Program-made: the position numbers and the translations under genes
DNA from: Rhizaria sp. SCN 62-66
Lineage: Eukaryota
Reading direction: 5' to 3'
DNA: 64,000 nt
NCBI GenBank assembly: GCA_001724265.1
Contig: MEDY01000292.1
Span: forward strand, 1-64,000
Notes under the pieces: generated by a model
Databases searched by the model: none
The model's input: only the letters and a program-made list of their open reading frames with translations
Told to the model about the DNA's origin: nothing
In this document: piece by piece, positions 8,368-64,000 of the stretch
How the letters are laid out: every line of letters starts with the position of its first letter
Position numbering within the stretch: the first letter of the stretch is position 1

Positions 8368-11300
8368 TTACATGTTATTAAAGCGAATATCCGTCGCTTC
8401 ATATGGCCTGAATCGTTCGAAAACACCCACGTCATCGTGTTGCGAAAAACTGTGAGCAAATGTTGTTTTATCCCAGAGAGGGTTAGAAACAAGCGCCGCC
8501 CAGTCGACGGCAAAACTAGCGGCGCCTGCAGCGGCTGTACTAGCGACTGTATTCGCAGCCGTGAGCTGCGGCATTTTCCCCAGCTCCCCCTGCATAAGCA
8601 CTGCCCGCGCCCTGGGGTGCGCCTTGCTGCGCTGCACGGCCACCACGCGCCACGGCAGTTGCTGCGAAGCAGCCGCGGCGCTGCTGTTACTACCGCCCGC
8701 CTCTGCAGTAGCAGGGCGGGGGTACATGGCAGAGCCGGGCGCGACCGCTACGGGCGAGAGCTGCGACAGGAACACCGTCCCGGTCACCGCATTGCTGAAC
8801 GCCGCCGCGTCGGCCGCGGTCGGGCCTCGGCGCAGCGCTACGGCCACGGGCGCGGCGGCGACGGCGGCAGCGAGCGCGGCCGTGACCGCTGAGAGAGCGT
8901 GGGTCGGAATGGCAGTGCGGGGCGCAAAGGCGATGGCGAATGAGCTTGCGAATGCAGATGCCGCGGGCTTCGAATGAGTCGTACTGGTGAAGACGGTCGG
9001 AGGGACAACGGTCAGGAACGGCCGCGGTTGCGACGACGGTTGCGGATGCAACTCCGAATCGTCCCGGGCAGAGACTGGTGTCGATGCAGAGGCAGATGTT
9101 GCGGCGGTATCTTGTTTGGGTGTAAACATAGGAATTGCTAATGGCACAGCAGTCGCAATATAGTCGCGCGCAACATCAATGTCTGTTGTTGCCGCTGTTA
9201 CTGTTGTTGGGGTCGAGGTCGTGGTGATGAGAAGGGAGACTAGAGCAATGGCGGCAGATGAGAGCTCTTCTGAGAGACACCATTTGTCTTCACTGTTATC
9301 ATCTTCGTGGTCATCGTCGTCCTCGTTGTGATCATCGTCGTCAGAAACGTCGTTCATGCCGCGAGAGCTCGTGCCGCTCTCCGTTGCACCATCCTCTGCA
9401 TTCTTAGTCAGCCCTTCGATGACAGCGTGCGCGATCGGTGCAAACACTGCTAACCCCTGCTGTGACTCGCGCGGCTTAATATCAACAATGCAGCGCGCTG
9501 CAGTCAACACTAGCTGCACTACACTCGCAGAAGCAGAGTCGCTATGAGGGTTGTTCCGAGCGCCGGGCTGAAGAGCGCCGGGAGTGACTGAAAGCAGCGT
9601 CTCAGTGAGCCAGGGAACAATAATAGATGATGGCACCCGCACAGGTAACACGGGCGACACTGAGTCAGACTCGGATTCGGCTGACTCGGGCTGCTGTGAG
9701 CCAAATGGACTCGACGCGGCAGTCAACAGCGACCAGGAGAAGGCTAGCGCAGCTCCAACAGCCTCTGAACATAGTGCAGAAAGGGTATCATTGCTTACAT
9801 GACTATTTCCACTCGCAAAAAAACTGCTGGGGCGAGGAGGGTATAAAAGTGCGGCAAGTGTTGACGTTGAAATTGTCTGCGTGTTCGTGACAAGTGGACA
9901 TGCGCTGAGCAAAGAGCTGGCGATCGTCATGCTCAAATGACGTTGCCAGTCTGAAGTAACAATACTCGAGATGACAGGTTGCTGCGACTGCGGCCGAGAC
10001 TGAGACTGGGACGGAGACTGAGACTGAGGGAGAACGATCCGGGACGCGGCTGCAATCGCGCCAAATGCAGCACCAGCTACAGCACTGCGACACAGGTTAT
10101 CGTCATTGTCGCTGCTGCTGTCAGCGGTGCTCTGCTCGTACGGATATGAACTAGAGTCAAACAGAGGGTTTGTGGCCGGCGCAAGCGCCTGTAGCCGTAA
10201 CCACAACAGCAACCCAGCTCCCGCCCCGACGGTCTCGCAGTCGGCGCTGGCGCTGGCGGCCGGCCCTGTGACGCCCCGCGCAGTGGCGGCAGCGCCGCAG
10301 CCGGGGTAGAAGCGGGCAGCGGCCTGGCGAGGCGTCGCTGCGTTGGCTGCTGACGACTTGTCTCGTACGAGAGCGTTCGTGGTTGCGGTCGTGAGTGTGC
10401 TGCCGTGAAACGCGTTGAACAGCGCAGCGCCTGACCCTGTAAACGCCCACGCAGCGACTGCAGCCCAGGCGGCGGCCAGAGGGGCGACGACGCTAAGGGA
10501 ACCAACGGTCTGCTGGTTCTGTGATGCCGCAGTTGATGAAGATGTAAGGGCGCCCTTATACGCCCCAGTATCGTCAGACTTGATCTGGATTGAGCCAGAA
10601 AGCGTCCTGTTACTCACAAGTTTGCCCATACCGACACCGCTAAAGGCAGTGTTATTAGAAACGCTCGCGCTCACGCCGGTATTGTCACGAGCTGCTGGCG
10701 TGAGGAGCTGTGTGAGACGTGAAGCGAGCAGCGGGAGACATGCGCGCGCAGCGACGCCAACTTTGGAGCCAGCAGTCGCCGAACCAGTGACAGCACGAGT
10801 ATACGTAGGCAGCAAAGGATACTCCGACAAAAGTTGTTGCTGAGAGTTTGTGCTGCTGGTACCGAGGCTGCCGCTCTTTGCAGGCGTAGGCGCTACAAGC
10901 AATAACCCACCGGCTGCGGCAGTCGTCGTGCTGCTCGAAGCTGCCGCCGGCGCGGGTGTCGTGGCCTGCAGTGCTAACGCAGTGTCAAGGACGCAGTCGG
11001 CAACTGCAGCGGCAGGAGCGAGGCTCAGGCCAAGCCCTAGCAAGGCCCGCTGCGCCAAGCCCACGCCTGGGTTAAAGCAATCACTCGCATTCGTGGTTGT
11101 CGCAACAGAAGCGGCAAGCGCAAGCGCTGGCGCGACGGCAGTCGCGGTGATCGCGGTCACGTGCGACGCCGACGTCGCGGCCAGCGTGGTCAGGCCGGTC
11201 ACCGCGTCTTTGCCGGTTACGATCATGTCGCAACTGCACAGAACAACCGCCGCAGATGTCGCCAGGTCGCTCGCATTCGCTGGAGCATCACTTAAACTAG

Positions 11301-14300
11301 AGTCGGAAGCGCAAGTCGTCAAAGCAGTGGCTTCAGTAGCGGCAACTGCGGCAGCTACAGACGCAGCAGCAGAGGCAGCGGCAGCGGCAATTTGCGCACC
11401 AAAGACCTTCGAAGCAGCATATGCCACCGCGTTCGTACTGCCGCTAACGCCAGCACCGGCACTGGTCTGACCCTGCCTGACGCCGGGCGTCTTGGCCGCG
11501 GCGTGGATCTGGCTGCGCGGGGTCGCGCGCTGGCCGGCGCGCGATGGCGTGTGCATGTCGGCACGGCGCATCTGCAGCAAGTTGCTGCTCGCAGCAGCAG
11601 CAGCAGCAGCAGCAGCGCCAGCGCTCAAGGCGGGCCGCAGCGGCGAATACATCGCCAGGCGGCGCGCCTGCAACAGGCTAGTCGCAGCGGCAGTCGCAGG
11701 AACGCTGACACTCGGCGCTGTTGCTGTTGTAGTTAATTTCGTGGTGGCAGAACGAGCGCGCTTTGTCATTGGAGCAACATCCGCCTCGTCCTTGAGCAGA
11801 ACAACGTCCTCTTTGCTCGAGGTCGTATTACCATCCTTCATTAGCACAGCATCTTCTGTGGATTTAACTGAAGCCGCGTCGGTATCTTGAAGCAAAGCCG
11901 CGTCGTCACCGCTCTGGCTCTGCTGAGTCGGCAGCAGTAGCGAGTGAGTTGCCTTCGAGGCCGAGCTCTTGATGCGGATCAAGTGGCCTGCGGCACCGGC
12001 GCCGGCATCAGCGCTGGCTGCCGCGTTGAAAGCGCTGTCGAGAGACACAGCCGCGTGCGGCTTCGCTGAGATCGCACTCTGCTTCTTGCTATTGTCAGCA
12101 GAAACGCCCGGGAGTCCATCCTCAAGAACAGCAGCGCTTGCACTGGCAGAAGTAACACCAGTAGTATTGGTACGGTGTGTGTCAGAGTGCGCCTCAGCGA
12201 CTGGTGGTGCAAGCATGACATCAGGCGAGGTTTGCGCAGAAAAGTCATTTAGACTCGCACTGGGGGTACTTAGACTGACGTCTCCATACACCTCCACCGT
12301 CCGGCGCTTGACGCCGTTGCCAATAAGACTCGAATCATCACCTAGATCTTTGACGGGGGTGGTTAGGTTTCTTGGGGCAAACGCGCTCAGGCGCGCAAGC
12401 GACGCGGCGGCCGTGGGCGCAGCAGAGGCAGCCGCCAACGCAGCCTTCTGCGTCCGCTTGCCGAGCCTGAGCGTCTTGAGCGCAATCCGCCGCAGCCTCT
12501 CGGTGCGCGCGCCCGTGGCGTAGGCCAGCGCGACGAGCGCCGCGGCGGCGGGCGGCAGCCGCGCGGGCAGCGCGGGGAAACCAGACTGCGCCGCGTTGCC
12601 GCTGCCGCTGCTACTAACAACGCTAGGGCCGAACTGAGTGTGGGCGGCGTACGGCTCACAACCGAGGGCGGCACCGGTCAGGGAGACAATCGCGCCGCAG
12701 CCGAAGAGCGTGCGCGCAGTCTCCAGCGCCATCGGCACTGACTGTAAGCAGCCGGAGGATCGTGAGCCACTCGCTGACGGAGAGCAGCGCATCAGCGACT
12801 GCGGCAACGACAGGGGATCAGTCACCCAGCAGTACACCGGGGTCGGCGACGGCGCCAGCAGCGCGGCGGCCACGGCGGCGGCGGCCAGCGTGCCTGCGGC
12901 AGCGACGGCGGCGGCGTCGGAAGGCAGCCAGCAGGTGCAAGTGGGGAAGACGAGCTTGCCTTGGGACTGATGTCGAGGCACTGCACCGATAGTGTGACTC
13001 GCAGTAGAGCTTGACGTCTTAGCAGTGTGCTTGAAGGCAAACGACGGAGTCGCTGCCTTCACTGGTGTAAAGGGCTTCGTCGTCGGAGTCGACGCAGAAA
13101 CGGCACCAGCGGCAGCGGCGGCTGAGTTGTGCTTAGACTTGCCTTTGACTGGCGTCGATGCCGCTGACGCTGTTGACACCGGCGGCGATGTCGCTGCAGT
13201 CGCTCGGGTGACAGTGACAGCACAAACGCAGCGAATGCACTGGCCGTGCCAGGCGTCGTCGTCGTCGTCGTCGTCGCTGTCGCCGTCGCCGTCGCGCACA
13301 GCGCTACGACCACGACGGCCGTTGGGAACCGTAAAAACGCAGTTGTCATCATCGTCGTCCTCATCATTGTCATTATCGTCATCGACATCATCTTCGTCGT
13401 GGGGAGAGCGAGCTACACGGGGGGTGTTCTTGCCACTCCGACTGCTAGTGCGTGCAAAGACAGGGCTGGAACCAGGCGTTTTCGCGGAATCTGATCCGTC
13501 ACGCATCGCGCCAGCAGCACAGGCCGCGGCGGCAACGGCGGCTGTGACCGCAATGGAGACTGACGGCGAGAGCGCGGTGGTGACAGATAGCACGAGTCCA
13601 GTGACATCGGCCACGGTCACGCCGCTGCCGCTCACATTGCTGCCAGCATTCACCGTCACATTAGCGCTCGAGCCCGCAGTCGAGTGAGTGTAAGGAGGTG
13701 AGAGCAAGGGTAAGGGGGTGGCGACACGAGGCAGCTTGGTCAGAGCAGTGACTGTGAGCGCAGTCACAGCGGGGCAGGCGCTCACGGTCAGCGAGGAAGT
13801 CAAGCCGCTGCGACTTAACTTATGGAAGGCGCGGAGTGACGCAAGGAACAGAGCGGCCGTGGTCGCAGCGGCCGAGTAAGGACACTTGCCCACAGTCACT
13901 TTGTACGTGGCACAGCGGTCTTGGTCACGGTCACTCATACTAGCCTGGCCACTGTTATCAATCGCTCCCACTGCTGCCGCTGCCGTCGCCGTCGTGACCC
14001 TGAGCAGAGCTGCGACTAAGCCGCTGTCGGTGTTCGGACTCGCACTCGCAGCGCCTGTGGTGCTACTCGAGAGCTTCAGAGGCTGTGCTGCGGTCATTTT
14101 GAATGACGACGCCAGAACGCCGTTCATGGTGACTGTGGGCACCCACCCTTCACGGACACTTAGATCTGAGCCCTAGGTACTTAGACGGGGCAGCGTTGTC
14201 CACACACTGTCTGACATGACGCTTAAGCCAATCGTGCCGGCAGCAACACAGCCAGAGACACTGCTAGTCGCGTTTTGTCCAGCGTTGCTATCCCGAAAGC

Positions 14301-17300
14301 CGCTGTGTCGAGCGAGACACAGAGGCAGCGGCAGCGGCGGTGGCTGCGAGAGCTGACTCAGCCACTGGTGCTGCTGCTGTTGTTGCTGCGGTTGTGGTTG
14401 TTGGTTGCTGCTGGCGGAACTATCGCCCGAGCTCGACTGCCAAGAGCTGTTACCAGAGTAACTGCTGCTGGCGTTAGAGCTAAGGGCGTTGGCAACGGCT
14501 GACGTCAGCAGCAGCGGCAGCGGCAGACCCGAGGTCGCTGCCGCCACCGCAGCCGCACTCGCGGGGGTGATGCTCGGCGCAGCGCTCCCGTCTCCGTCTA
14601 AAGGGGTACTTAGACGGACATCTGGGAACAGAGGCTGGTCGCGGCCGTCCGCCCCCGCCCCCGCCGCAGCAGTCGCGGCGACCAGTTCGGCCAGTGTCAC
14701 GGGCCGCAGTCCGGTCGCCTTGCCACCCTTAGACCGGCGGCTAAGTGCCCCGCCCTGAGACTGCGGGAGCGCGATGGGGGCGCCGAGGCCCAGCGCTGCG
14801 GAGGCGAGCGTGCCGGTGACCCGGGACCAGTGCCACACTGCGGCGGCCGCGGCGGCGACGGTCACTTCGGGCTGGGACCCCTCAGGATGAACAGATGCTG
14901 CTGACACGTCATCACTGGCGCTGCCTTTGCGTTGCAGCTGTGCGGTTTGCTGCGTGGCTGTAAGCAGGGTCTTGCGCCAAAGCTGTTCGAACGCATTGAT
15001 GTCGCCGTCGTCATCGTCAGTGTAGCCCTCAGAGTCGCTGGCGCTGGCACTCGCGCTCGCGCTCGCACTCGCACTTCGCGGACCACAGTCGCACTCGCCC
15101 TCATTATCATCGTCACCGTCACCATCGTTGTCTTTGGCGATGCAACTACGACAGCTTCTTTTCGTGCTTGTGCGCTGCAATTTTGGTGCGGATGGGTTGC
15201 TACGGGCCGCGACTGAGGCTTTGCGAGGCGACATGCCCAGCGCCCGTCGGGCAGCCGCTGCGTAGTGCGCAGCGCTCTCCCTCAGCTGCTGCGCCTGCCG
15301 CAAAGTGGGCACGGCGCCGCCCTGCTGCTGCTGCAGCAGCCACGGCAAACGGCCGCCGCCGCCGCCGCCGCCGCCGCCGCTAGCGCTGGTCCCGGCGCTA
15401 AAACTGGCGCGAATGCCAGAGCTATAGACAGAGCCAGAGCCGGAGACAGAGGCAGAGGCGGAGATGGGGCGGAGACTTAATCCAGAGCTGCTGCGAATGG
15501 TGAAGCTAGAAGTGTTTGTGCTGCTAAAATTCGCGGCACTCGTGTAACCAATCGCTGTGGTCGTATTGCTGCTGAGATACGTCTGGTACTGAAACTGCGC
15601 CGACGCAGACTCAGAGCCAGAGCCGTAGGAGCCGGATTGTTTTAAAGTCAAGCCGGTGATGAGTACCGCGGCGCCCTCGGAGCACGTGGCCAGCAGGACT
15701 GGCGACGGAGAGTACATAGTGACTGTGAGCACCACACCGGTGGGAACAAGCTCACTGCCACTTAGACTCGCATCTAAAGAACTTAGACTGCTGCTTGTCG
15801 CGGCTGGTACAAGAGCAAGCTCGGCAAGTGTGAGCGTAACCGTGGTGCCAAAACGACGGGAACGAGGGTTCAACGCCTCTTCTAAGGTCTCTTGTGCAGC
15901 CACAAACGCCTCAACAGTCCGTGCACTCACACCACCCACATTAACAGCCTTAGAGCTCGAACTTGAGCCAAAGCTAAAGTCACCAGCATTGTCTTCGCTT
16001 TGTCCGCTGTGAGACGACGCGTTCTCGCCAGCGAAGGTGGCCACGGCGGCCTGCAGCCCCGCGAGCCAGGCCGCGTGGGCCGCGGCGCCCCGGCTGGCCC
16101 CGGTGACGCGGTCGCGCACCTTGGCGGTCGTGCGGCGCAGCACCAGCCCCCGCAGCGCCGAGAGCGCGGGCGCGGCCGCGGGCGGCGTGGGCGCAGAGGC
16201 GGCGGCGGCCGGGAACAGCGGCGGATGCAGCGGCAACGGGGGCGCCAGGGAGAGGGCCGCGGAGAGGCAGGCCGGCAGCGGCAGCAGCGGCGGCAGCAGC
16301 GGCGGCAGCGACGCGCTCGAGTGACCGACAGTGGTGCTGACACTAAAGCTCGCGCCCGAGCTGAGATGTGTTGAAAGGAGAGGTGTTGTAATAGGAAGGC
16401 CCAGGGACGCGCTGAGACACGTCAACGCCAGAGTATGCAGACTCTGCTTCACAGAGAAGGCCAACGGGGGCGGCTTGACTTCCGCGACCCCCGGCGTAGT
16501 TTGCGCCACGTAAGGCGGCAGCGTTGTAGCCGTGGTTGTGGCCGCATCGGCAGCGGCCAGCGAAAGCCAGACAAGGACTGAGAACACCGGCAGTGAGTTC
16601 GGGAAGCACTTGCTAGGCTGCAAAAACGACACGACAGACTGCGCCTGTGCATAGGTGCGGGCGCTACTTAGATCCTCCTTGCGGGCACTTAGGCCGGCTG
16701 CAGAGAGGAGCAGCTGCCTCACCGTGTCGGCCATCGTCGCGACGGCGTGCGAGCAGTGCTGCTCACGGTCGCTGGGCCGCAGCGGGGCCCCGCTCTCCGT
16801 CTGGGCTGTATCGCCACCCTTAGACGGGGCAAGTACTCCAGCCGCGGCTTGGACGAGAGCAGCGCGGGCTTGGGCCAGCCATCCTGACCCCGCCGCCGCA
16901 GTGGAAGCGCCAGTGCCAGTGGCAGTGGCAGAGGCAGCGACAGGGGCAGGGGAGTAGGCGAGGGCGGCCGCAGCCGCCGTTGCAACCAAAGCTGACGCTG
17001 AGACGGAAGCTGAAGCTGAAGTGGGCGAGTGCTTTACAGAGCTAGAACTCCCGTTCGCCCCCGTGCTCGAGCTCTGGCTAGGGCTGCTCGATGGCAACCA
17101 AGTGCGGATTGACGACAGATCAACCACGCCCACCGAACTGCTGCCGCCGCTGCTGGCGCCGCTCACCCCGCCGCTGCCCGTCGCCGCCACGGTTACACCG
17201 CTCGCACCGGCGGTGTTTGTCGCAGTGCTGGCCGTGACTGACCCGGGGAAGCTGTACGTGCTGGCGGGCACTGCCATCGCGGGGCGGGTAAGTACCCCCA

Positions 17301-20300
17301 GGCGCGCGTCTAAGGGGGCCGCGCGCGTGGCTAAGTGGGTGAGAAACAACACCGCGACGGAGTTGGTGTTGGGCGTCACGCCGTCAATGTAAGTGCCCGC
17401 CGTGACTAAGGGGGCGAAGTCAGTGCTTACACTGGAAGACCCCTTAGATGCTGTTTCTGGAAGTAATGCGCCATTAGACTGTTGTTTCAGCAGAAGATGC
17501 GCTAATGGATGTTGCGGCAACTGGGGAAAATCAGCTGAAAGGTCGCCGATAATGCAATTAGTGGTGACCGAAGCAGCAGCTGTCATCCCCTTATACGTAC
17601 TCACCAGAAGCTTGTCGCTACTTTTGCTCTCAGGAGGGGTCGGATGTGCCTGCGTGTACCGCTGTAAGCAGGTACTTACTTTGTCTAAGCGGAACGGGTC
17701 GTGGTTGTCCAAGGGCGGCGTGGGGTCAGACGCAGCGACCGTGAGCAGAGCGCTCGCCCCTGTCACAGTCAACCCGCTCCCGCCGCCGCCGCCGCCGCCG
17801 CCGCTCTGGCCCGCGCCCGCGCCCGCACTCGCAGTGCCGCGGCCGCCACCGTGGTAGCTGGTAGGACTCGCTTTGCTGGTAATGCTGCTGCTGTTGTTGT
17901 TACTGTTGCGGAGGCGCAGGTCAGCCTCCTCCTCGGCCGCCCGGACGACTGCAGCGGCGGCAGCAGAGGGGCCCACAGCGAAGAGCTGCGCGTTCGCGGT
18001 CTCGAGCTTAACGCCGGCGCGGATATATAGCGGCGGCTGACTGCGACCGTCATCGCCGCGGGCACTTGTGACAGTGCTCGTGACAGTGCGCGTGCCCGTG
18101 GTGGAACTGGTGGGGTGTTCGGTCGCGGCAGCGCTGCTCACGGTCACTTGCTTGGGACTGAGGCCGAGGCCGGCACGGATCACAGTGAGGAGCTCGCTCA
18201 GCGCCTGCTTACCCTCGCTAAGTGCCACCGCGCCCTTGGACGTCGACTCAGCCTCGCCGCCGCTGTCGGGTCTAAGTCCAATTACCCCCTTGGCCGCGCC
18301 CCGCAACACGAGGTCGTCCTCCCACACCGCGCCCGCCTGTTCGCACGCGCTGATGACATGTCCCAGTGCCCAGAGCCGCTGCAGACTGCCGTCGAGCCGC
18401 GCCGGCACGCTGTAGAGCCCGTCCGAGAGCAGCACGTGCGCGCCGCCGGGGCCAGAACCCGCGGGCCAGCACACCTGGTCCGAAGTCAGGCGGCTCAGGT
18501 GCTGGTTAGTCAAGCCACCCCCGCCGCTGAGGCCTTGATCTGCGCTGAGACTGAGGCTGTGGCTGCCGCTGTGGGTGTTGAGAGCGGAGACGAGGGGAGC
18601 CAGCCACGGCGGGGGCAACCACGGCAGCTGGTTGCTGCTGCCGCCGCCGCTCGAAAAGCCACTTGAAGCAACAGCGTTGATGTTGTTGTTGCCCGCTGGC
18701 GTTGCGTGTGAGTGCGCCTGGAGCTGCAGCTGCGACTGGAGCCCGGGCTGCAGCGACTGCTGCGGCGGCGGTGGCGGCGGCGGGACGAGCGGTGGGTACG
18801 CGTGGGTCACGAGTAGCGCCACGCGCGCCGTGCTGCTGGCGTCCTTCTCGCACATGTCGCGCACCCACGACCTCGCGCCCGGCCGCGCCACCGACTGCAG
18901 GGGGCCGTGGGCAGCGGCAGAGTGACTGTGGGCAGATGCTGTGGTCGAGGGAGCGTTCTTGTCGAGAGAGGGAGCGTCGGGAGAAGGACTGTGCGCAGGG
19001 CAGCTGTACCTCATCAGGGGGCGGCTTAACTTCACGCCGACCGGGGTCATCACCGTGGCCACTGCGGCAGGCGTGCGCAGCGTGACTGGAGCCAGGGGCA
19101 GCGGGGCCAGCTCGGCGCGTAAGCGGCGTAGCAGGAGGACCAGGATGCGGCTCGGCGTCAGCGCACGCATATACACCTCAGTATGTGGGCGTGGGGAGTG
19201 ACTGTCAGAATGACTGTGAGCATGAGTGGGGCCCAAGTGACTGTGCACGCGGTCGGCGGCCGCGGCCTCCCACACCGCCTGAGCGAAGGCCGCTCGCACC
19301 CAGGGAACAGTGACTGCGCTGGCAACCTGGGGGGCCAGCGGCCTGACTACAAAGACATCCGTGTCACTCTCAGTACCCGTGGGGCTCTTGTTCTCGAGAG
19401 TGACGCCGTGTGAAGCAAGGTTGTGCAGTAAGATGTAGAAAGTTCGCCAGTCAGAGTACTGCAAGGGGGTACTTACTGCGTTTAAGTACCCGCACTCAGC
19501 AGCACCAGTACAAAGCACTGAGCATGTCTCTGACGCCACCAATGTGTGGTCTTGCGCTGCTTCGTCATCGCAGTCTGTTGCTGACGCTGCTGTAGCTGTA
19601 GTTGTGGGTGTCGATGTAAGTACGTCAGACAGCAGAGGTGTAAGTGTCACCCAAGGCAGCGCGATCTGAGTCGGACTTGTCGCAATGTCGTTCGACGCAG
19701 AGGTTAAGCCGTGGTCCTCCGAAGTCAAGCCGCTTCCGAGAGCGCAGAGCGCAGCGAGAATGTCCCTCGTCTCAATGTCGCTTTTAGCGTCAGTTCCGTC
19801 CGAGTCCGAGTGACCGTGGTCGGCGAACACGGCCCGCCACACGGCCGCGGCCTGACTTTGATTCGGGCGGTGCGGCCACGGCGCCAGCAGCGTCGCCTGG
19901 GCGCACAGCGTGACGGTGCGCAGGTGGTGCCGAATGTTCCACAGGGACACCGACGCGGCTAAGGGGGTGTACAGCGGGTAAGGGCAGTCCGCGGTGGAGG
20001 AAACGCTAGAACCCGTTGCAGCGGCCGTCGACACTGAGGCAGCGGCGCATAGACTTCGACTGGTGTAAGTAGCCGGGATCGCGGAGAAAGGGCGGCGGCG
20101 CAGAAGCGATGCAAACTGGCACGCGCGGCACTTACACAGGCTAAGTGTCTCCACCTTAGACCGGTCTGAGTAAAGGCAAAGACACAAGTACGGTAGTTGC
20201 TGCTGCTGTTGTTGTTGCTGCTGAAGCGACTGCTCACAGTCACTTGATGGCCTTTGCGGGAAAGGCAATGGCATGCCTTGTGAAACGCCGTGAAAGGGGT

Positions 20301-22974
20301 TTCCACCTCCACCAGGAGTACTTAGAGTCCCAGACAGCGCAGCCTTAGACTTCAATTGCGCCGTGTGAGCGCCCAGAAGCAGCGCCTGGGGCTTAGAGCC
20401 ACGAATGAGAGGGTTATAGCTGCCACTATCATCGTCATCATCATCATCACCGTCGTCGTCGTCATGATCGTCGTCGTCGTCATCGTTGTCATTACTGCTG
20501 CTGGTGCTAAACGAGCGTTTGACTCCACCCTTCGCACCCATCGTGCTCAGAGTATGTGACAGATGCTGCTGCTGCAACAGCAGCGGCTTAGACGGCGTTC
20601 GACCATAGCGTCCGCCACTTGCACCAGCAGCAGAAACAAGCGTGAACGGCTTCGAAGTCAGCGCAGGTGCCCTGAAGATATTGTTGCTGTCGTTTGTATA
20701 GGCGCTCGCGTGAGAAAAGCGTGACTGCGTCGCTTGCTTCTTGACTGGGGTGTTAAAATGACTACTGTTGGCAGTCGCTGTCGCCGGAGGGCTACTCTTG
20801 CGCTGCAGAAACTGCTGTTGATGCTGCTGTTGTTGCTGTTGAGTCGTGTTGTTCATGCTAGCGAGACTGTGTGCACTGGTAAAGATAACACCGCTTGAGC
20901 TCGAGCTAGAGCTAGAGCTAGCGTTGTTATCACTAGTGTAGTCGTCGCTCATTTCCGCCATAATACGGGCTAAGCGGTTTTTCTTTTCATCGGAACTCAA
21001 GCCGGCACTCCCTGTCCCAGAGGATAAGCCGCCTGCGCCGGAAAGCAAGCCGCCGCGGCCAGTCGTGAATGTGACACCGCTACTCTGAGCGCCGATGCTG
21101 TTCGCGCCACTGCTATTGTTGTTGTTGCTGATGTTATAGGTAAAGTTGCGAGCAGTCGTGAACACAGCGCCTCCTGAAGTTCCAGTAATTGCAGCAGCTG
21201 CTGACGATGATGACGATGATGAGCGGAGACTTGAGGCGGACGCAAACAAGGGGTCTGGCGAAGGCGCAGTGGTGGTGACAGTGCTACTTTGATTACTCAT
21301 GTCCGTGTTTGCTGCGCTTGCAAGCTGTCGAGCACTCATGAACAAAACACCACCATTCGAGCTCGAGCTCGCACCTGCGTTCGCACTAGAGCCGCTACCG
21401 CTGCTGTCAGTGTCACCGTCATCGTCGTCAGCGTCAAAGGAAGCGAGCAAACGGGCAAGCCTGGCCTGTTTCGCTGCGTCGTCAGCAGTTGAAGAAGATA
21501 AGCCGCCGCGCCCGGAAGCTAAGCCGACACTGGAGGGCGCAGCCAGTGGCAGTCCAGTCCTTGCCGAGGTAAAACTGGCGCTGCTTGGAGTAAAGCTATC
21601 ACTGCTTGAAGCAAAGCCGCCTGTGGTGGCTGAAATTAAGCCGCCACTTTGAGCCGCCAAACTCCGAGCAGAAGCAAAGATCACACGACCTGAACTCGCA
21701 CGAGCGCTGGCGTTCACAGTCGCATTCGCGTCCACACCCGCGCTCGCATTGCTGACGCCGCGAGTGCAACTTGTGGTGCTGGTGTTAGAGTCATCATCGT
21801 CAGTGTCGAATGAGGCCATAAGACGCGCCAACCTCGCTTTCTTCGCTGCGTCCTCACTGTCGCTGGAAGCTAAGCCGCCGCGGGAGGGCATAGGCAGAGG
21901 CAAGCCGGTCCTCGCTGATGTAAAGATGCTGCTGCCGCTCAGAGCAAAACCGCCGCCTAAAGGCGAAGTCAAGCCGCCACTATGCGGAGCTAAACTGCGG
22001 GCGGAAGCGAAGACGACACCGGTGGCGGGAGCATTGGCACTCGCATTGGCATTCGCATTGGCATTCGCACTGGCGCCTGCAACAGAGCGTGCCGTAGCAG
22101 TGCTGGTGCAGTCTGTGTCGGCGTCTGTGTTTATGTGTGTGTCGTTGGTGTTGCTGTTGTTTAGCATCTGCCTTGCACTCATAAACACGACACCGCCTGC
22201 AGGAGCAGTGGGATTAGCAACGCTGCTGATGTTGCTGTTGCTGTTGTTGCTGTTGTTGCTGTTGTTGCTGTTACGACAAGTGCGACTGCTGCCGCCACTG
22301 GTCATATCGTCGTTGTCGTCGTTGTCGCTATTGTCTGATAGTTTAGCAAGGAATGCGCGCAAACGGGCTTGCTTGGCAGCCTCATCAGCACACGCACTCG
22401 CACTAACGGTGGCACTAGGCCTAACAGGAGCAGTATTGTCAGTTGTTGATGTGTCTGCGATAATGTTCGTGTCAGCGGCTGTGTTTTGCGCATGCATAGC
22501 GCGCGCTGATGAAATGAAGACGCCACCCTTGCTCGCAGCATCAGTAACAATAGCAGGAGCTGTCGCAGCGTCGTCATCTGCGAACATCGCCGCCGCCCTC
22601 TGCCGCGCCAGTGCCGTCACGGCCACGGACACGGGGCGTCCGCGGCCGGTCGTAAAGAGCGGAAAACTGCCGCTGTCAGCGGCACTAAAAGCAGGCGCAG
22701 TCGCAAGTGCTGCGGAGTCCGAGTCAGAATTCAAGGAAAAGGCTGAGGCAAAGGCTGAGGCGGGGGGCAAAGGGGGGCCATAGGGAACGGAAACTGGAGC
22801 CGCTAGGGGCAACAGCGGGTTATCAGTAAGACTTGTCGTGTCTGTAGCCGCTTGTGCCTGCGATGTTGCATGTTGGGTCTGTGCTGACGCAGGGGAGGAG
22901 GACCGGCGCCGGGCGTAGATGCTCCCGGGACGCTGTGACATCGGCCTGGACGAAAACGGCGACAGAGAAGACAT
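8368..22974 (-). CDS. BRCA2: BRCA2 homolog, ~4868 aa, read through one in-frame TAG (14173-14175)
   Basis: ORFs 14173..22974 and 8368..14142 share a frame: ...L S T TAG G S D L S V R E G W V P T V T M... BRC-like repeat FTTGRGRPVSV...AAAMFADDD plus many FxSAR motifs. Helical/OB1 motifs WVRAAFAQAVWEAAAADR, RSWVRDMCEKD..ARVALLV, LLSDGLYSVPARLD, AGVKL, LATRAAPLDARLG. OB2-like LTVTMYSPS..LATCSEGAAVLITGL. Possible OB3 strand VYCWVTD lies downstream of the TAG. Ends TAA. Confidence 0.85.
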
Positions 22975-23994
22975 ATCGAGTCATGTGAGTATTTAATAAA
23001 GAGAATAAAAGTTAAATATACCGATAAATGTGGTAATCGTATCCTAGATCTATAGACGGTCATTTGCCAGAGAATTCAGCGGTATGAAGTCATCCCTCAA
23101 AGGCGCGCTGTGAACGCAAGATTGACCATTGGTGACTGGCTCGAAATGCATCTGAGAGTGTAGACAAGTCTATCATACCTCCACGGGTACAAAAATTGAA
23201 TACCTTAATCCTTTTTTGCATGAAATTATTTTCTAAGGTTCCGCAACGCCCCTCTTTTGCATAAAGCTTCATGTCTCATGGTTTATGTCGCAAAGTAGAC
23301 TTTGACCACCTTATTTAAGGCGAATGCAGCTCTCATAAACCAATGTAACAGACTGGCATCAAGAATCCAGCGCTGCAACCTACACTGTATAACACATAAA
23401 ACTTGCTGATATGCTTGATTTTTCATCCAATCTCAATATAAGATCATGAATGACACTTTTGTCTAGCGCAACTTTTTGTGGTCAGAATTGAATATGTCCA
23501 TACAGTAAGTGTAACAAAGCTGACGACATAAAATACTCTTGCAATTGACGTCTCATGTTTTAGCGTGTTGTTTTTCAGACGTAACATGTGTAAAAATAAC
23601 TGTATCCGCTTGCTCTACTCATCCGAAGTAAGATCATTACGACTTTTCAAACTGTGGTAAGTACTTAAAATGCAGAATATCTCATCAGAACAAAAGTTAT
23701 AGCATAGATCTACTTAAAGAAATGTACGTACAGTAGTTTCCCGACTGCTGCCTAACTTTTTTCTAAATATAAAAACATCTCGAGCTAGAAAACGCAACTT
23801 TTTTACTCTTCCTCAAACACGCGCACAAGCACGCGTCGCCGAGGGATGAAGACTGTCAAAGACCTCAAGCTAGTCAAAAGTATCATCACTTGCACATGCC
23901 TCATAGTATCGTGAAACGTTACTGCGACCTGGCCTTTAAATAATATTGTTTATAAAATACTTGATTGTTTTTGTCATTCTTCATTTTAAAGAGA

Positions 23995-25968: not shown

Positions 25969-26130
25969 ACCCCTTGCCCCTTACTTACCTCTCTTTGAAC
26001 TCTTGTGCATGTGGTCAGGTGGTCCGTCATCTTACGAGGTCACCATGTTGATTCACGCCCGCAATTACACCTATGGTTTCATTATTTCTCACATGTATCG
26101 GCTATTTAATTTCATTTTATTTATTTAGAC

Positions 26131-27865
26131 ATGGCATTACGCGCACTGACTCTTCAGGAGATCAATGACAAGATCGCTAAGGTCCAGGTCGATAAGGCTC
26201 ACCTTGTCAAGAGTCAGGAGCTCCTCTTTGCGACCTTGGCGGAGGCTGTAAGGAACAAGATTCCCACAGAGTACATCGCGAAGGAGCTCACGGCGCTCTC
26301 CGCGTCCATGACTGATGTGCAACAGAAGATCGAGAACCTTGAGAAGGATAGGCTCAAGCTTCCCGCCGCAGCTGCAGGTTCGTAATTGGGCTCCTGGCTC
26401 TTCTGATTGGTGATAAAATTTGATTATTTATCTCGAACTCACCACACTATTCTTACCTCTCTCTTTCTCTCTTGCTCGCTCTCTCGCTCTCACTGCAGCG
26501 CCACCCTACACGCCGTACGAGACCACACTGCTCACGAAGCTCCCTGAGGTCGCGACGGCGCCCGCGCCCGACTTGCGCATCTACTAGCAGACGGTCGTGC
26601 TGAGCGCTGCTACCCCGTCAGTGCAAGCCGGCGCCGTTACCGGCCTCGTCCCTTTTCACGCGGCAGTGACCACCTTCCTCACCGCTGAGGTCCCGATTGA
26701 GGCTGCTGAGGAACAGTCGCATCGCCGCAACGACTCGTGGAACGCTGTCGTGCTAGCGGTCGCCAACGAGCAAGCGAAGTCCCTTTACCGCTTGGTGCGC
26801 AACTCCCAATCTGCCTAGTCGCAGTTCGGCGCATCAACCCTCAATCCCTAGTCCCGCACCGATTTCGTCATTCTCATGGAGGGCTACGCGAGCCCCGTCG
26901 TCGCCGAGGAGAAGGCCGGTAAAGACATCGAGGGGGCGCTCAAGGACATATACGGCAAGTTTTGGTTTGGCCCGTATTTCCAAGACTGCATTGACGGCGT
27001 GTTGGGCGTGGCATTTGATGCCGAAACTCTCCAGCTTTACCAGCTCATTGGCGTACGACATTGGCTCCTCGCTTCGGCTAACCTGACGACGGACAAAGGC
27101 AAGGCCAAGGCGCTGAAGCTGGCCGTGAACGTGGGCCGCTGGCTCCGCCACGTCCGCGAGCAACAGCTTGTTGGCAAGTGGGAGTGGCGTCTCGAAAGGG
27201 GGTATAAACGCTCCATCGAGTTGTCGTTCAATGGCGCGGTCAAGCAGCTTCCCGTCAAGTCCAACCAGATCAAGTGGATGCGCCAGGTCTATCGCAGCAA
27301 TATTCCCTGCATGGAGAGTCTGAAAGGGGAAATTATTAAAATCGGGGACGACCAATGCCAGATGTCCCTCTTACCCATCGGCCTGCCGCTGGACGAGCTG
27401 CTCAGCCGCAGTAAGGTGCCCGACCCTGTGCCCGTGCTGGAGGCCATCCTCTCGTTCTTCGTGGGGCTGCACGCGATTGGCTTCGTGTATGTTGACCTGC
27501 GCCCGTCCAACGTCATTCGCGCCGACGGGCGCTATCTCGTCATCGACCTCGAGTTTGTGCGCCCCGTGAAAGAGGTGGTGCCCGTCAACTTCAAGTGCCG
27601 ACACGCACTGGAGCAGGCGGGTTTCTCGAAGACCAAAATGACGGTGTCGACGTGCATGGATTTGGTAATGCTACACGCGCTCATGGTTACCTGCGGGTGG
27701 ACCAACGAGCAGGATCCCCACTACGGTGCGCTTCTCGAGTACCTCGCGCAGGTCGGTCCCGCGACGGGGCACACGGCCAGCACGGCGCTCGACATCCTCA
27801 ACACCCCCACGAAGCAGGTGCTGCAGCCTGCGAAGAAGTCGAGGACGACGAAGATGTAGCGCTAA
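26131..27865 (+). CDS. Crinkler/RHS-type effector-like protein: coiled-coil header, PD-(D/E)xK REase, protein kinase-like domain; exons 26131-26377 and 26499-27865 (~537 aa); four in-frame TAGs
   Basis: Intron 26378-26498 (GTTCGT, pyrimidine tract, CAG) joins the exons in frame. TAGs at 26585, 26816, 26849 and 27857, then CGC TAA TAA. REase-like SRTDFVILMEG...VVAEEKA; kinase-like AVK, FVYVDLRPSNV, YLVIDLE. Confidence 0.75.
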
Positions 27866-29341: not shown

Positions 29342-29554
29342 ACGACATTGTTCATGATTATCTCGATATATTGATCGTCAAGTTGCATTTTCATATTAAA
29401 ATCTAAATTAAATTATTATTTTAACTAGGTTTCTGTAATAATACCTTCTTAATCTAAGACTGCATCTCTCTACTGACAATTGCTTCGACTAACTCTTGAC
29501 AGGAAGAAAGCAACACATCGGATTCCCGCTTTACCCCCCTTGTCACTCGGCACC

Positions 29555-31618
29555 ATGCCCCCTGCCGCCGCCCTGCACACCAAGCCGCTTTTCGCTTTTC
29601 TCGCCGGCTTCCTCACGCAGCACAACGTTGCGGACGCCTTCGACTCGCTCGACAACGTGAGCGAAGCCGCCGTCATCGTTTGTACGCAGTGCCACACGCT
29701 GCAGTTCCCGCTGTGCCGCCAGCACGGACTGCTGCACAGCCCCGCACTCTTCCGGGCAAACGCCAACACTGGCGCTAACGCGGACGTTCGCGTAACGTGT
29801 AGCGAAGCTTCAGCGTCGGTAACAGCGCGCTAGATTACTGAGACGCGGCAGCAGTGCAGACTGGGCGCGCGCTGCTATATGTGTCCAAACGTGCACACAG
29901 GCAGCATACATGCTCTCAAAGACGCAGGGCAAGAGTTGCCGCAATAGCAGCAACAGTAGAGTTAGCAGACTCAGTTCCGTTGCCGTTACTGCCATTACTG
30001 CCCAAACCCACGTCTCTCACAGGCACAGTCTCATACGCAATCAGAGTCGCAGTCGTCGTCACATCTTCTGGAACCATAGGTTTTATACCTGCGCCTGCGC
30101 CTCTCATCTCAGTTGGCCCTGTGCGCAGCCGTCACCTGGGAGGGCGACTGTGAGCAGCAGAATGACTGTGAGCAGCCGCAGCCGGGGTATCTGGTGTACT
30201 GCCGGCTGTGCCACTCCGCCGCAGTCGTCATGGTCTCTGACAAAAGCGTCGATGCGGCTAGAGAGGCGGCGGAAGCGTCAATGCCAGCAACAACGACGGA
30301 CACTTACGCGTCTCGTACTAACACTTCGGGGGGTACTTACACCGAGGAAGAGGAGACGTACCGCGAGTACGCGCTGGCGGCCCGCGCGGCCGCACGGCTA
30401 GCCGCTCTCACGGCCGCTGCCGCTGCGAAAGCAAAAACTAGCACGACTGACACCGAGGCAGAGGCAGCAGCAGTAGCTGCAGCGGAGGCAGTGCCTGCGC
30501 TTGTAGACGGGGGTGACACTTCTGCGGTTGATAAGGCTGATATAGAGGCGAAGGCTAAACCTGATACAGCGGGCGCTGATGCTGATGCTGAGGTAGATGC
30601 CGCGGCAGCGATATCAATGGAAGAGCTTATACTGTCTCTGCAGCAGCAAGCGTAGCCGCCGACTAAGGGGCTCCGGCTGCGGCGGCAGCTGCTTTCGTCA
30701 TCACTGTCAGCGGCGGACAACAGCAACAGCACGGATCATAACGTGGGTGGTGGTGGCGGCTCTGAGCAGCAGCAGCAGCAGCGGCGGCGTGCTATGCTTG
30801 TTTCTGCGTTGACGCATGTGTGGAAGCGTAAAATCGACCACTTTGGCGAGCAATGCACGATCATCAACAGCGGCAGCGCAAACGTTCACATTAAAACTAA
30901 CAGCGCTACGTGCAACACTGCTTTCAGTGATGACTGCGATTTTGCCAGTGATGGGTGTGTTACTATCAGGCCGATTAACCTCGTTCCGAGGGAGATTGAG
31001 ATTTTTTCCGACGGGAAATTTGCCTATCCTGGAGTGATGTCAAACTTTTTGACGCTGCATGACCCTGAGAACAACATCGCTCCGATCACGATCGCTGGCG
31101 TTAACGGTGATACTAACCGCAACAACTGCAATGGCAACGAGAACAGCGACTGTGACGATGCCGAGAATGCTAATAATGCAAGTGCAAGCCAGGACAAGTG
31201 TAACGACCACTCTAGTTCCGGTGGCGACGAGATGATCGGGTCCCCGAAAGACCTCGTTTTGACGAGTCCGCACGTCCGGCTGACGCACTTTGCGGTGGAC
31301 GTGCTCACGGTTACCCCGCCCGAGGTGCTCAGCGGCGAGGAGCTCATGCAGCTCGAGGCTGGGTATCCCCTTACACTTTCAAACAACGCTCAGAGCACAC
31401 CAGCAACAGCGGCAGCCGCTAAAAGCGCTGCCTCCACTGCGAAAACACCGCTAGGCTCGCCTAAAAGCAACAAAATGTGTCCCAACAGCAGTAGCAAAGC
31501 GAGCAATAACGCTGTGACGAGCACAGCGGCGTGGAAAGTTGAGAGAAAGGCGCAGGGGCTCAAGGTGTCAGTTGAGTGGGGGCGGCGGGTCACACGAATG
31601 CCCGGCCTCAAACGCTAA
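29555..31618 (+). CDS. Cys-rich hypothetical protein, paralog B (~687 aa), with six in-frame TAGs
   Basis: caccATG at 29555 and one frame to TAA at 31618, with TAG at 29831, 29945, 29957, 29963, 30077 and 30653 and no internal TAA/TGA. Colinear motifs with paralog A: CTQC..LQFPLCRQHGLL / CNSC..VEFPGCEDHGLL; FRCRYC / YHCRFC; RLRLSSQLAL / RFRLGATTAL; GYLVYCRLCHS / GYIAQCALCNS; VWKRKIDHFGEQC / IWQRKLEHFGPQC; RRVTRMP / RRVTKMP. Confidence 0.8.
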
Positions 31619-33488: not shown

Positions 33489-33579
<91 letters not shown>

Positions 33580-34322: not shown

Positions 34323-34356
<34 letters not shown>

Positions 34357-56648: not shown

Positions 56649-59633
56649 ATGTCGGCGCCACCAACCTCCAGCAAGCTCGAGCGGCTGCGGCGCAACCCAT
56701 CATACGCCGTTAACCCGCTTGTAGGCCTTAGATCCTTTGCGCGCAGGGCATCTGTGTTGCCTCAGTACGGGCCCGCTCTCCCGCCAACCTCATCACACAA
56801 CAGCAACTTCAGTTCGAACAACACCAGCAACAGCGCCACCACCTTTTCTGCTTCTGCTATGGTGGCCACTTCTAGTGTTTCTGCAGCCGCGACGCCCTCA
56901 GCAAGCTTTGGGCCTCGGTCCCGGCTGTCCAACGCGTCCGCTGAGCTAAGCGACCGCGACGACGACGACGACGACGCTGACAATGAGTCGAACAGCGACA
57001 ACATGTACGCCCGTGCGAGTGCCAATGCCAGTTATGATATTCCCATGACAGGAAGCGTTGACGCGCCGCAGCATGTGTCAAAGCGCTCTCGCCTCGCTCC
57101 AGCCGCAATCCCCGTCACCGCCAACAAAGCCAACAACAGTCACATTGCTCGCAATCGCTTTGACGTGCAGCTAGCCCCGTTCTGCGAGCGCTGCGGCCGC
57201 AACATGGCCAACAACAACGCAAACACTGAACTTAATGCTAATTCTGTTAGTATGGCCGCGAATACGAGTGCGAGGGGTGGCATCAGCAGTTTGAGCGAGG
57301 TTTGCCTCTGTTTGCCGCTGAATGCCACCGCATCGTGGTGTTACCGCGGCAACAAGAGCGGCCATGGCATTGATACTGGCAGCGTAGACAACGGTGCTGG
57401 AGCAGCTATCAGTCGCCGCAAGAGCAAGAGCAGCAATCGCGATGCTCCCGGCGGCGACGAGGCTGACGCCTTTTCCAACGCTCCAACTCTAACCAGCTAC
57501 TCGTGTGACACAACGCAGCTGGCTATGGACGACTCTGACATCAGCAAGGCGAGCGGTCAAGCAACTGAGAGTAGCAACGGGTCAGAAACCTCGACAGTTT
57601 CACTCACATGTACGTTTTTCTCGAATTATTATGTCTGAGTATTAACACCTGACACTTCAGACACTTTTATTGAACTTGTTTTGCGATATAACTGACTTAC
57701 ACATCTTTTTGTTTCAATGCATCCCGAACCGTTCCGTAGATTCCTCTTGTCTCCCGCCTCTGCCTGCCTCTGGAACGAGTGCAAGGACAACTGCGAGTGG
57801 GGGCGCGAGTGCTGTATCCGTGCCACAACTCGCCGCCGCCGTCGCCGCCCGCGCCGCCGCGCTATCCAGTATCTGCACGGCCGCGGTCGCGTGCACCGGC
57901 TTGTGGAGCAGTGCGGACGCGCAGAGCAAACTGCTGGCGCTCGCTGCTGCGCTCACGACGACCGCAGGTGAGCCGCGAGCAGCAACAGCAGGAAACACAA
58001 AACTTCCTACAATTTCCAACACAATCACAAACACAAACGCAAACAGCGTCACTAACGCCAACCTTGCTGCCGTATTTGCAAATGCTGCGACTTTGTTTCA
58101 CAACAAGCTGCTGCACTTGACATCGACTGGTGCGAATAACAACAAATGCGACTGCGAGCAGAGTAGCGGCTCTGAGCAGGGGTTGTGGAGCTCGCTTGCG
58201 TGGCTTACTCCGCTCGATGCGCAGAACGGGCGTTTACAGTCATCAAACCCGCATGTTCGTTCTGCCCCAAGGTCTAGTGCGGGTGCGAGCGCTTGTGCGA
58301 GCGTGAGTGATCGTTCTGCTGTTGATGCTGATACCGACGCTGACGCCAACGTGACCGCTGGCGCTGGTGCGTGGGCTGTAACGAGGGCGCTGACGCTCAC
58401 GCCCTCGCTCGCCACCGCTCTCTCGCTCACAAGCACAGCCACCCCGTCTGCGCACACAGCCGCCGCTGGCGGTTCCAGCAATCGCGGTCACACCGCTCCT
58501 GCGAGCGCAAGCGCGAGTACGAGCGTCGCTGCTGATGCGGCGGCGTTTCGGCTCCTGATCTCGACGCCTGCATCAGCACTGCAAGCCGCCCACAGTCACT
58601 CTGCCGCCGCAGCAAGTGCTGTTTACAGTCAGTTGGGAAATGGCAACGTGCCCGCAGCTGAAGCGAGCTTGTTTCACGCGAACTCCACTCTACTGACGGC
58701 GCAAGCGGCTCGCAGTCTATTGACGGCCACTCCGAGTGGTTCCGCTCAGTCTCTCTGTCACGCGACGGAGGCCGCGAGGCTGTTATCTTCTCTCGGTGTC
58801 AAAACAAGGCTTGTGACCGTGAGCAAGCGTTCTCTCTCTGCCAAAGCGAACACTCCTTCTTCTCATGATGGCTTAATATTTGACGCCAGGGACCATGAGC
58901 AGCAGCAACAGCAGTATTGTCGCGGTCACTGTCAGCAAAACACGTCCCCAGTGGTATTATCAGCCACGGCTGCGGGATCAACGTGGCGGCACTTGCTGTC
59001 TGCAGCTGCGGTGAGCGCGCGTGCCGAGGCTGCGGCGAACCTTGCTGCCGCGGGTCTAAGGGGGTACTTAGACCAGGACAACTCGACGCCAACGAAGACA
59101 GATAGGACTGAGACTGGCCCTAGTTCAAGCAGTTCTAGTGCCAGCGAGCAACAACAGCTGCAGCAGCCGCGGTCGTTTGTGTCGTTGCTTGCTTCTAATG
59201 CAACTAACGCACGGCTGTGGCGCTGCGTTGCTCTGCAAGGCGGCGGTAAAGTTAGCGCAAAGCACTTAAGCAACAGCCCTAACGATAATAGTGGTGCGTT
59301 GCTGTTTGTCATGGTCCCTGCGGTTGCTTTAATCCACTTATCCGGCCCTTTTTTCGGCACTGAGAGCTTCGACTCTGTGCCGAGTAAAGTTGAAACACGG
59401 CAAATCAGGTACTGGCACCGCCGTCTGTCGCCATCTGCAGCTACAAACACCACTAAAAACAACACGGCCGCGAACATGAACGCCAACGCTAATGACTCTG
59501 AGACCGACAGTGACACTGACGATGACGACGACGATAATGATGATGATGATGATGATGATGACGGAGACAGTGGCGCTGACAGTGATGACAATGATGTCGA
59601 TGCGATTGCAGACGTGCTACTCCCAACATTAGC

Positions 59634-59670
<37 letters not shown>

Positions 59671-62600: not shown

Positions 62601-64000
62601 CGACGGCGATGACTATGGCTTTGTGTCCGCGGCTGTCGCAGCCGCAGGAGCAGAGACGGAGGCTGATGTTGACGCTGAGCTTGACACTGACGACAACAGC
62701 AGTGATGTTGCTGCTCTTGTTCGCTTGTATCCGTACATTCCTCGTTACTTGCAGCCACAATTGCCTCTCACGATTGTCGATCTTCCCCCTTACATTCAGA
62801 AGACACGTCTAAGTGTCGTTAACTTGAACAGTAACGTGATGAATCAGAAGATCGGCGATGACACTTCAAACGCAAAGAGTGACGACGATAGTGACAAAGA
62901 CAACGACAGCGATGACAACAACGAGACGAACAGCGGCTCTGGTTACGACAACGATGATGACGATGATGACCATCACAATTTGTTGGAGCTTCTCCTCGGC
63001 GGCAGGTCACAAACCCAAGGCGGCCTAACTTCTGTGTTCAGCGGGCCTGTCTCGCACCGGTCCCCGCTGTCCCGCGCCCACAGTCACTTTTTAATCACAG
63101 CAGTTTCATCAGCACAACAACAGCACCAACTACAGCTACTCCAACTGCACCAGCGACATCGACAGCGGCAGCAGCAGCAGCTGCAGCAAGAGCTGTCGAC
63201 GATGCCTCACTACAACATCCGTGCCTTTCACGGCCCTTTCTCCCCCCGCTCCCTCACTGTGGTGTCGCGCAGCAGCCCCGGCCTCCGCGCCCCGCGCGCG
63301 CTTCTGTCGATGCTCTCGGCGACGCTGCCGCCCTCGCACCCGCTGCTGCTGCTGCCTACCGCCGTCCGCCACTTTCCGCCCTGCGCGCTGCGGCTCATCC
63401 TCACGCTCGCCGCGCACAGGCATCTTAAGTACTTCGGCCGCGTACAGCTCAACCTCTTTTTTCGGTCCCTCGGCCTGCCCGTCGAAAACGCGATCGCTTT
63501 TTGGCGCGACGGCCTCACCGCCAAGGCTCGGCCGAAGAGTAGCCCCAACCCCGGTGCGAGCTCTAGCAGCAACGCTAGCGCCGGCGCCGGTGCCAGTGCT
63601 GCTGGCTTCGGTGGCGGTGTGAGCATTGCGTTTGGCGGCGTCAGTGTCGCTGTCGCTAGGCGCGTCGGCCTGCTGTCGGTCGACAACGCCGCTGTCGCTC
63701 TCGGGCTGACTGACACCGAAACAACAACTACTACCACGACGACGACGACGACGACGACGACGAGTGGTGTTGGTTCTAAGTCGTCTAAGTACACTGCGGC
63801 CTCGTCTAAGTACCGCCGCAGCGGCAAGAACCTCATGTATGACAGTGATCCGAACAACGCAAACGACGACGAGGCCGGTGACCATGATGACGACGACGTT
63901 GTGATTGCCAAAACTACCGCAGACTTGATCGATAACACCAGCTCGAGTGCTTGTGCGAGTGCAAGCGACAACGGGACCGTGACTGAGTCCGGGACTGAGA
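56649..64000 (+). CDS. PRIM2: DNA primase large subunit (PRIM2/PriL), greatly expanded, 3'-truncated by the window edge; exons 56649-57609 and 57740->64000; in-frame TAG at 61588-61590
   Basis: After the TAG the frame stays open to 64000 (missed by the ORF track). At 63367-63507 it encodes RHFPPCALRLILTLAAHRHLKYFGRVQLNLFFRSLGLPVENAIAFWR, matching the p58C Fe-S domain pattern FP.CM..L...L....HL.H.GR.Q..LFLK.IGL..E.A..FWR. Weaker N-domain-like motifs lie upstream of the TAG: FVMVPAVALIHL (~59305) and VLLFKGRALL (~59854). Intron GTACGT...TAG is phase-compatible. Confidence 0.82.

Follow-up and report, generated by a model that had tools for sequence, protein, structure and literature searches.

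UAG probably read as glutamate in the nuclear code of a putative cercozoan that retains UAA and UGA as stops

UAA and UAG nearly always change meaning together. A 2025 paper on non-canonical codes in Heterolobosea reportedly includes a nuclear case in which UAG is read as Gln. Among the changes that affect UAG alone in the accessible parts of the literature, UAG is Leu in the rhizarian exLh and three TARA ciliates, Gln in Iotanema, Protocruzia, Hartmannula and Trochilia, and Ser in Scotinosphaera, while UAG as Glu is listed only where UAA is also a sense codon. The organism studied here would resemble exLh (Sainouroidea), as portrayed in the available portion of PMC5304391, in being a rhizarian whose nuclear code reassigns UAG alone and keeps UAA and UGA as stops. 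UAG is Leu in exLh, however, whereas here Leu scores lowest or near lowest, a long variable arm is missing from the relevant tRNA and L69 of eRF1 is unchanged. In the consulted sections of PMC5304391 and PMC11687900, UAG alone is likewise reassigned in Iotanema spirale, Hartmannula sinica and Trochilia petrani, and eRF1 of Iotanema carries T32G (PMC5304391) at the very site where our organism has T32S; these three species read UAG as Gln, whereas the conserved columns and the tRNA body of our organism are of the Glu type.

The ciliate Oligohymenophorea sp. PL0344 reads UAG as Glu with CUA tRNAs nearest to tRNA-Glu, as here, but according to the accessible text of PMC10553269 it reads UAA as Lys and has UGA as its sole stop, whereas our organism keeps UAA and UGA; PL0344 has ten genes for CUA tRNAs and uses UAG thousands of times, as against one gene and a rare codon here. 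A tRNA-Glu(CUA) also reads UAG as Glu in peritrich ciliates and Blastocrithidia, as far as the available parts of PMC11687900 and PMC12153298 go, but there UAA is Glu too, whereas TAA in our organism is terminal in 54 of 92 cases and internal in 0 of 16. Full-text literature searches, which spanned few subscription papers and excluded supplements, returned no case of UAG as Glu with UAA and UGA as stops, and this code appears not to have been described before.

The window analysed here, the whole 64,000-nucleotide stretch, is contig C292 of a 714-contig, 34.9 Mb assembly from an uncultured single-celled eukaryote. The sequencing runs that contain at least half of its words are labelled as bioreactor or wastewater metagenomes, or are unlabelled. 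The best named matches to its CCT-alpha protein are from Mataza, Lapot, Amorphochlora, Plasmodiophora and Paulinella. A quick tree of this one gene, inferred from 66 of 120 rows with heterolobosean and sainouroid rows absent, placed it in a long-branched clade within a 45-row group (SH-aLRT 94) that includes Mataza and Paulinella. From these CCT-alpha comparisons we tentatively assign the organism to Cercozoa, with moderate confidence. An earlier placement in Heterolobosea, taken from 18S rRNA resemblance, was dropped after the CCT-alpha tree. The only 18S rRNA gene found (G000:C706:4459-8903, L034) is 4.4 kb long, very divergent and of unusual composition (r 0.36 versus a median of 0.84). It holds several insertions resembling group I introns, one with an ORF that we take to resemble a His-Cys homing endonuclease, and the gene itself presumably resembles heterolobosean 18S rRNA genes. 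It may be foreign, from a second organism.

We examined stop codons in a sample of about 0.93 Mb, which is 2.7% of the 34.9 Mb genome and was partly targeted and thus non-random. The coding signal ended at TAA in 54 cases, at TGA in 37 and at TAG in 1 (n=92), a terminal class that may contain frames that end in introns, and ran on past TAG in 15 cases, past TGA in 1 and past TAA in none (n=16); another 15 cases were unclear (TAA 7, TGA 6, TAG 2). AT-rich control tiles gave a TAA:TGA:TAG ratio of 6514:5798:3202. Within this non-random sample of 0.93 Mb, UAG is not a terminator while UAA and UGA are. In-frame TAG is found in conserved genes, namely those for eRF1, Thg1 and four kinases, and we regard it as nearly certain that TAG is a sense codon genome-wide. 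The single internal TGA lies at position 3441 of L108 (G000:C581), in well-scoring coding sequence of a gene that adjoins a PhoPQ-related domain exon; it may be a nonsense allele or a selenocysteine codon.

TAG is rare and strongly avoided: the training set has 6628 GAR and 5901 CAR codons, compared with 32 curated TAG sites, and in the sample UAG is about 0.5% as frequent as the Glu codons. It is essentially absent from dyneins and chaperonins. Matches to domains contained TAG in 2 of 18 dyneins, 1 of 54 kinesins, 1 of 43 DEAD proteins and 0 of 18 chaperonins, and those dynein, kinesin and DEAD TAGs that were inspected turned out to be intron acceptors. Among the 142 kinase matches 11 held TAG, of which four were internal in the domain core and one was in an insert; the remaining ones were intronic or intron acceptors.

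The tract that drew attention to the window reads CCG CAA TAG CAG CAA CAG TAG AGT TAG CAG ACT CAG, followed by FRCRYC (Table 1). The first-pass annotation had noted three in-frame TAGs here, and the letters stand as it gave them; a contig from run X3 (DNA, another study) matches window positions 29689-32058 with 0 differing letters, and the focal TAGs are therefore not assembly errors. Its description as a poly-Gln tract needs qualifying: the composition is mixed, with 5 of 12 codons being CAR, and Q-E-L precedes the tract. FRCRYC does follow directly, but its likeness to the TAG-free paralog, where the counterpart is YHCRFC, is weak (E 4.4). The further TAGs cited for their Gln neighbours (26585, 26816 and 30653) are as described.

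Table 1. Coordinates of features in the window.
Feature	Position	Strand	Remarks
Focal tract	29939..29974	+	in-frame TAG at 29945, 29957, 29963; PQEQQQESEQTQ if TAG=Glu
Cys-rich protein gene, 687 aa, ATG to TAA	29555..31618	+	family unassigned in Pfam; six in-frame TAG at 29831, 29945, 29957, 29963, 30077, 30653
TAG-free paralog of the focal gene, 509 aa	23995..25524	+	common N-terminal Cys/His cluster, W..K..HFG.QC motif
Multi-copy kinase-like gene frame	26417..27865	+	in-frame TAG at 26585, 26816, 26849, 27857
4870-codon frame	8368..22980	-	single TAG interruption at 14175-14173
Long frame	57646..63999	+	coding style persists past TAG at 61588 to the window end

The open frame around the Cys-rich gene (29477-31618) contains six TAG, no TAA and no TGA, whereas neutral decay would predict about four TAA or TGA beside the six TAG (P 0.04). 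A codon model trained on the organism's own genome preferred the TAG-containing frame in 12 of 14 tiles of this ORF; of the two tiles where it did not, one contains the tract, and all six frames scored negative there. The paralog aligns in the same frame to residues 59-89 (E 1e-6) and 447-472 (E 2e-6) of the focal frame, and these two significant alignments flank all six TAGs. The claim that the stretch is coding is most likely correct. The 30 bases before the focal TAGs contain 3-8 T, versus 11-19 at four intron acceptors, which makes these TAGs unlike splice sites. A poly-A RNA contig from run X6 spans 29517-29940 gap-free with 3 other letters, the first TAG position included; it ends just 5' of the tract, so that RNA coverage is limited to the upstream part. 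Sequencing reads mapped to the window displayed no variants at TAG positions in 40 of the 579 rows.

Neither the focal protein nor the paralog could be assigned to a family by searches against Pfam and the organism's own genome, and the latter had no usable Atlas match. A piece of the focal gene (residues 541-612) recurs with 83% identity at G000:C37:1918-2130 (L103), where it adjoins a copy of the kinase-like gene, which suggests that the two genes were duplicated jointly. The kinase-like gene has only sub-threshold matches to kinases (E 0.04), and the neutral decay test yielded P 0.17. It is preceded by a short coiled-coil ORF in a unit at 26130-28010 with at least 12 further matches in the genome; many copies lie at contig ends, some are frameshifted with TAA stops, and their summed depth is high in other runs. 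This unit is probably a multi-copy mobile or effector-like family. Elsewhere in the window, an AT-rich repeat at 28690-29280 reaches very high summed depth in three runs and shows many loose ends. At 33492-33578, about 29 uninterrupted ACA units form an (ACA)n run between the overlapping frames 32195-33754 and 33453-36110, and a frameshift or length error in this run is possible. Two genes on the minus strand, for a P4-type ATPase over three frames (44583-55302) and a PP-loop (tRNA thiolase-like) protein (42728-43897), have their TAGs at or in introns.

The residue encoded by TAG was assessed from conserved alignment columns. In the otherwise intact Thg1 gene (G000:C18:31447), TAG is located at the position of human E77, the third of three conserved carboxylates according to the available part of PMC3701042. 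The column is Glu in 148 of 150 homologues, Lys in 2 and Gln in 0, with a small bias since the search query carried E at this site; E77 is Glu in all 4 PDB chains, and no homologues were returned by a word-index search. Scoring the protein against Pfam with different residues at the TAG gave 88.0 bits for E, 84.1 for Q, 83.9 for K, 82.5 for Y, 82.0 for W and 81.8 for L, so that E exceeds Q by 3.9 bits. In the eRF1 gene, the only full match to this family besides a second gene with an eRF1_1 domain, the TAG column corresponds to E107 and is Glu in 109 of 120 homologues, Asp in 10, Val in 1 and Gln in 0; the lone Val belongs to the nearest relative. In a calibration on three of the organism's own genes, 17 of 45 Glu codons lay in columns with at least 90% Glu, whereas none of the 28 Gln codons did, and by this measure two columns of about this type favour Glu roughly a hundredfold.

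Seven further domain sites hardly discriminate between Glu and Gln, and their main message is that Leu is disfavoured; it scored lowest or near lowest at 7 of 7 sites tested. The Pfam score for E minus that for Q was +0.8, 0.0, -0.1 and +0.3 bits at the four kinase sites, 0.0 at the ubiquitin-like, +0.3 at the CIMR and -0.2 at the PhoPQ site. None of the nine domain sites with TAG is clearly a Gln column, and two are Glu. A 714-aa frame at L040:1-2145 (G000:C681) is internally duplicated, encodes a ubiquitin-like domain and contains two in-frame TAGs.

We searched the genome with a pattern that combines a CUA anticodon with a T arm after it, which genes with introns or unassembled genes escape. 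There were six matches, compared to 19 for a reversed control, and one of the six is a tRNA: a single-copy gene on the minus strand (G000:C84:76008-76080), whose contig has the composition native to this genome (r 0.90). It scores 58 bits against Rfam with every stem paired. An initial tRNA search, which scored 63 of 506 candidates, did not include this gene in its result. The CUA tRNA is identical to the organism's tRNA-Glu(CUC) at 47 of 73 positions, to tRNA-Gln(CUG) at 33 and to the other tRNAs compared at 40 or fewer. In the acceptor and T stems the identity is 21/24 to its own tRNA-Glu(CUC), 7/24 and 8/24 to two tRNA-Gln, 14/24 to Asp and 16/24 to Lys. It has U11-A24, U13-G22, A46 and no base 47, all of which are tRNA-Glu determinants in E. 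coli in the accessible text of PMC9976931, and it is without C36, which is another such determinant (PMC9976931). A long variable arm is absent. Judged by its sequence, the CUA tRNA is derived from tRNA-Glu(CUC). A Gln-type CUA tRNA was not among the six matches, although an intron-free Gln-derived gene would fit the pattern, and the tRNAs of the loci examined included none with a UUA anticodon.

When metagenome contigs were scanned for CUA tRNAs like this one, four loci emerged, none from a relative of the organism. Three are on contigs with phage-like genes (L158, L159 and L160), two of them identical and within tRNA clusters. The fourth (L161) is a ciliate-like contig with the CUA tRNA at 1759-1830 beside a Sof1/DCAF13 gene at 4553-5239; as a side control, the acceptor stem of its CUA tRNA is similar, and 3 of the 5 TAG sites that could be aligned with the human protein fall on Glu.

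The release factor itself is altered. eRF1 has T32S at the UAG-reading GTS motif, where Thr is found in 120 of 120 homologues, G57S (Gly in 120 of 120) and T58K (Thr in 119 of 120), the last change being common only to the nearest relative, which is 84% identical and keeps T32 and G57. It is intact at E55, NIKS, L69, S70 and YxCxxxF. As described in the accessible portions of PMC5304391 and PMC9161772, T32 is in contact with the G of UAG; T32G accompanies the reassignment of UAG alone in Iotanema, and those of its relatives that use the standard code lack it. By analogy, T32S may act like T32G and weaken the grip on UAG.

The Gln-rich context of the focal tract was explored at 32 TAG sites outside the window, a set without the copies of the kinase-like gene, a single suspected intron and, from one batch of 15 candidates, the 7 judged by eye to be out of frame. 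The enrichment in Gln-rich tracts that the first-pass annotation anticipated is seen there: 5 of the 32 sites had at least three Gln among ten neighbours, against an expectation of 1.8% for GAG (P 2e-4) and 15.7% for CAG. At least three Asp or Glu among ten neighbours were observed at 6 of the 32, compared to rates of 7.7% for CAG (P 0.03) and 13% for GAG. The TAG/CAG ratio is equal inside and outside Gln-rich context (fold 1.0), whereas TAG/GAG is 10-fold higher inside (n=5 sites); other one-step mutants of CAG exceed their synonyms there by 2.7-3.7-fold. In a neighbour model of 23 sites, TAG was intermediate between Glu and Gln and scored lower than the GAR range (P 0.005-0.009), with bimodal contexts, and the immediate neighbours of these 23 TAGs were Gln in 4.3% of cases, versus 14-21% for CAR. 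Paralogs in the kinase-like family have CAG at four and GAG at two of the columns with TAG, and CAG stands opposite TAG in one internal repeat. Reads mapped to the window contained 197 transitions and 154 transversions. The codons around a TAG reveal its origin, the change of CAG into TAG being a transition, and not necessarily its meaning. The excess in Gln tracts could be explained by C-to-T changes from CAG or by mixed Glu/Gln charging. Mixed contexts would be expected of a rare new Glu codon fed by CAG transitions and synonymous GAG transversions, and mixed charging predicts the same.

We consider Glu the probable meaning of UAG in the nuclear code of this putative cercozoan, with UAA and UGA retained as stops, the Glu reading being based on the Thg1 and eRF1 columns and the tRNA-Glu-type CUA tRNA. 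The single CUA tRNA would be expressed, charged with Glu and pair with UAG and not UAA, while T32S, with G57S and T58K beside it, would weaken the grip of eRF1 on UAG. UAG has stayed very rare and collects in fast-evolving genes and low-complexity tracts, the focal tract included, where many TAGs probably arose from CAG by C-to-T and are tolerated as Gln-to-Glu substitutions. Counting against a pure Glu reading are that only two columns are strongly informative, the Val of the nearest eRF1 relative at one of them, the behaviour of TAG in Gln-rich context, which is that of CAG and not of GAG, the outcome of the neighbour model, the CAGs in paralogs and the missing C36.

An ambiguous reading of UAG as Glx, in which both GluRS and GlnRS would charge the Glu-derived CUA tRNA to give a mixture of Glu and Gln, we rate as unlikely. 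It would account for TAG at a near-invariant Glu position and also in Gln tracts at the CAG rate, in bimodal contexts, and for the strong avoidance of UAG, and U35 amber suppressors are charged with Gln by E. coli GlnRS (available part of PMC9976931). Yet TAG occupied a conserved Gln column at 0 of 9 domain sites, the transition bias of CAG accounts for part of the excess in Gln tracts, and the acceptor stem of the CUA tRNA is unlike that of the organism's own tRNA-Gln. Such ambiguity would represent an early, low-usage reassignment, with one tRNA, a recent T32S and UAG below 1% of Glx codons, a scenario that we find similarly doubtful; T32S is indeed absent from the nearest sampled relative. 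The reading as Gln favoured by the first-pass annotation, of the Iotanema spirale type, we judge to be more improbable still. Stop-to-Gln is the commonest change in the accessible sections of PMC11687900, and the Gln-rich contexts at 5 of 32 sites, the constant TAG/CAG ratio and the CAG opposite TAG at five paralog or repeat columns are as this reading would have them. It would, however, put Gln at Thg1 E77 (0/150) and eRF1 E107 (0/120), both strongly conserved columns that carry Glu instead, an outcome which the first-pass annotation itself had named as grounds for refutation, the only CUA tRNA found is of Glu type with none of Gln type among the six pattern matches, and Gln is scarce next to the 23 TAGs where it is frequent next to CAR.

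Least probable of all, in our estimate, is that TAG is still a stop and that the in-frame cases represent pseudogenes, nonsense alleles of particular strains or sites of leaky read-through, with the CUA tRNA a weak suppressor or pseudogene. The TAG-rich genes of the window adjoin a multi-copy family with decayed copies, neutral decay is only weakly excluded by the focal gene alone (P 0.04) and the kinase-like gene gives P 0.17, and many TAGs in domain matches are intron acceptors. A stop codon would nevertheless be expected at gene ends, where TAG accounts for 1 of 92 cases, and not within eRF1 and an otherwise intact Thg1; the CUA tRNA is fully paired, and eRF1 is changed at T32.

If the reading of UAG as Glu is true, the code table would be new, and Rhizaria would have undergone a second code change independently of the first. 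Gene callers that assume the standard code cut short eRF1, Thg1 and further genes of this organism from wastewater. We have here both the gene of the tRNA and an eRF1 with alterations, unlike for exLh and Iotanema in the available portion of PMC5304391, so that the way in which eRF1 drops UAG and keeps UAA becomes testable. Since UAG is still rare, codon capture in this genome may be at an early stage.
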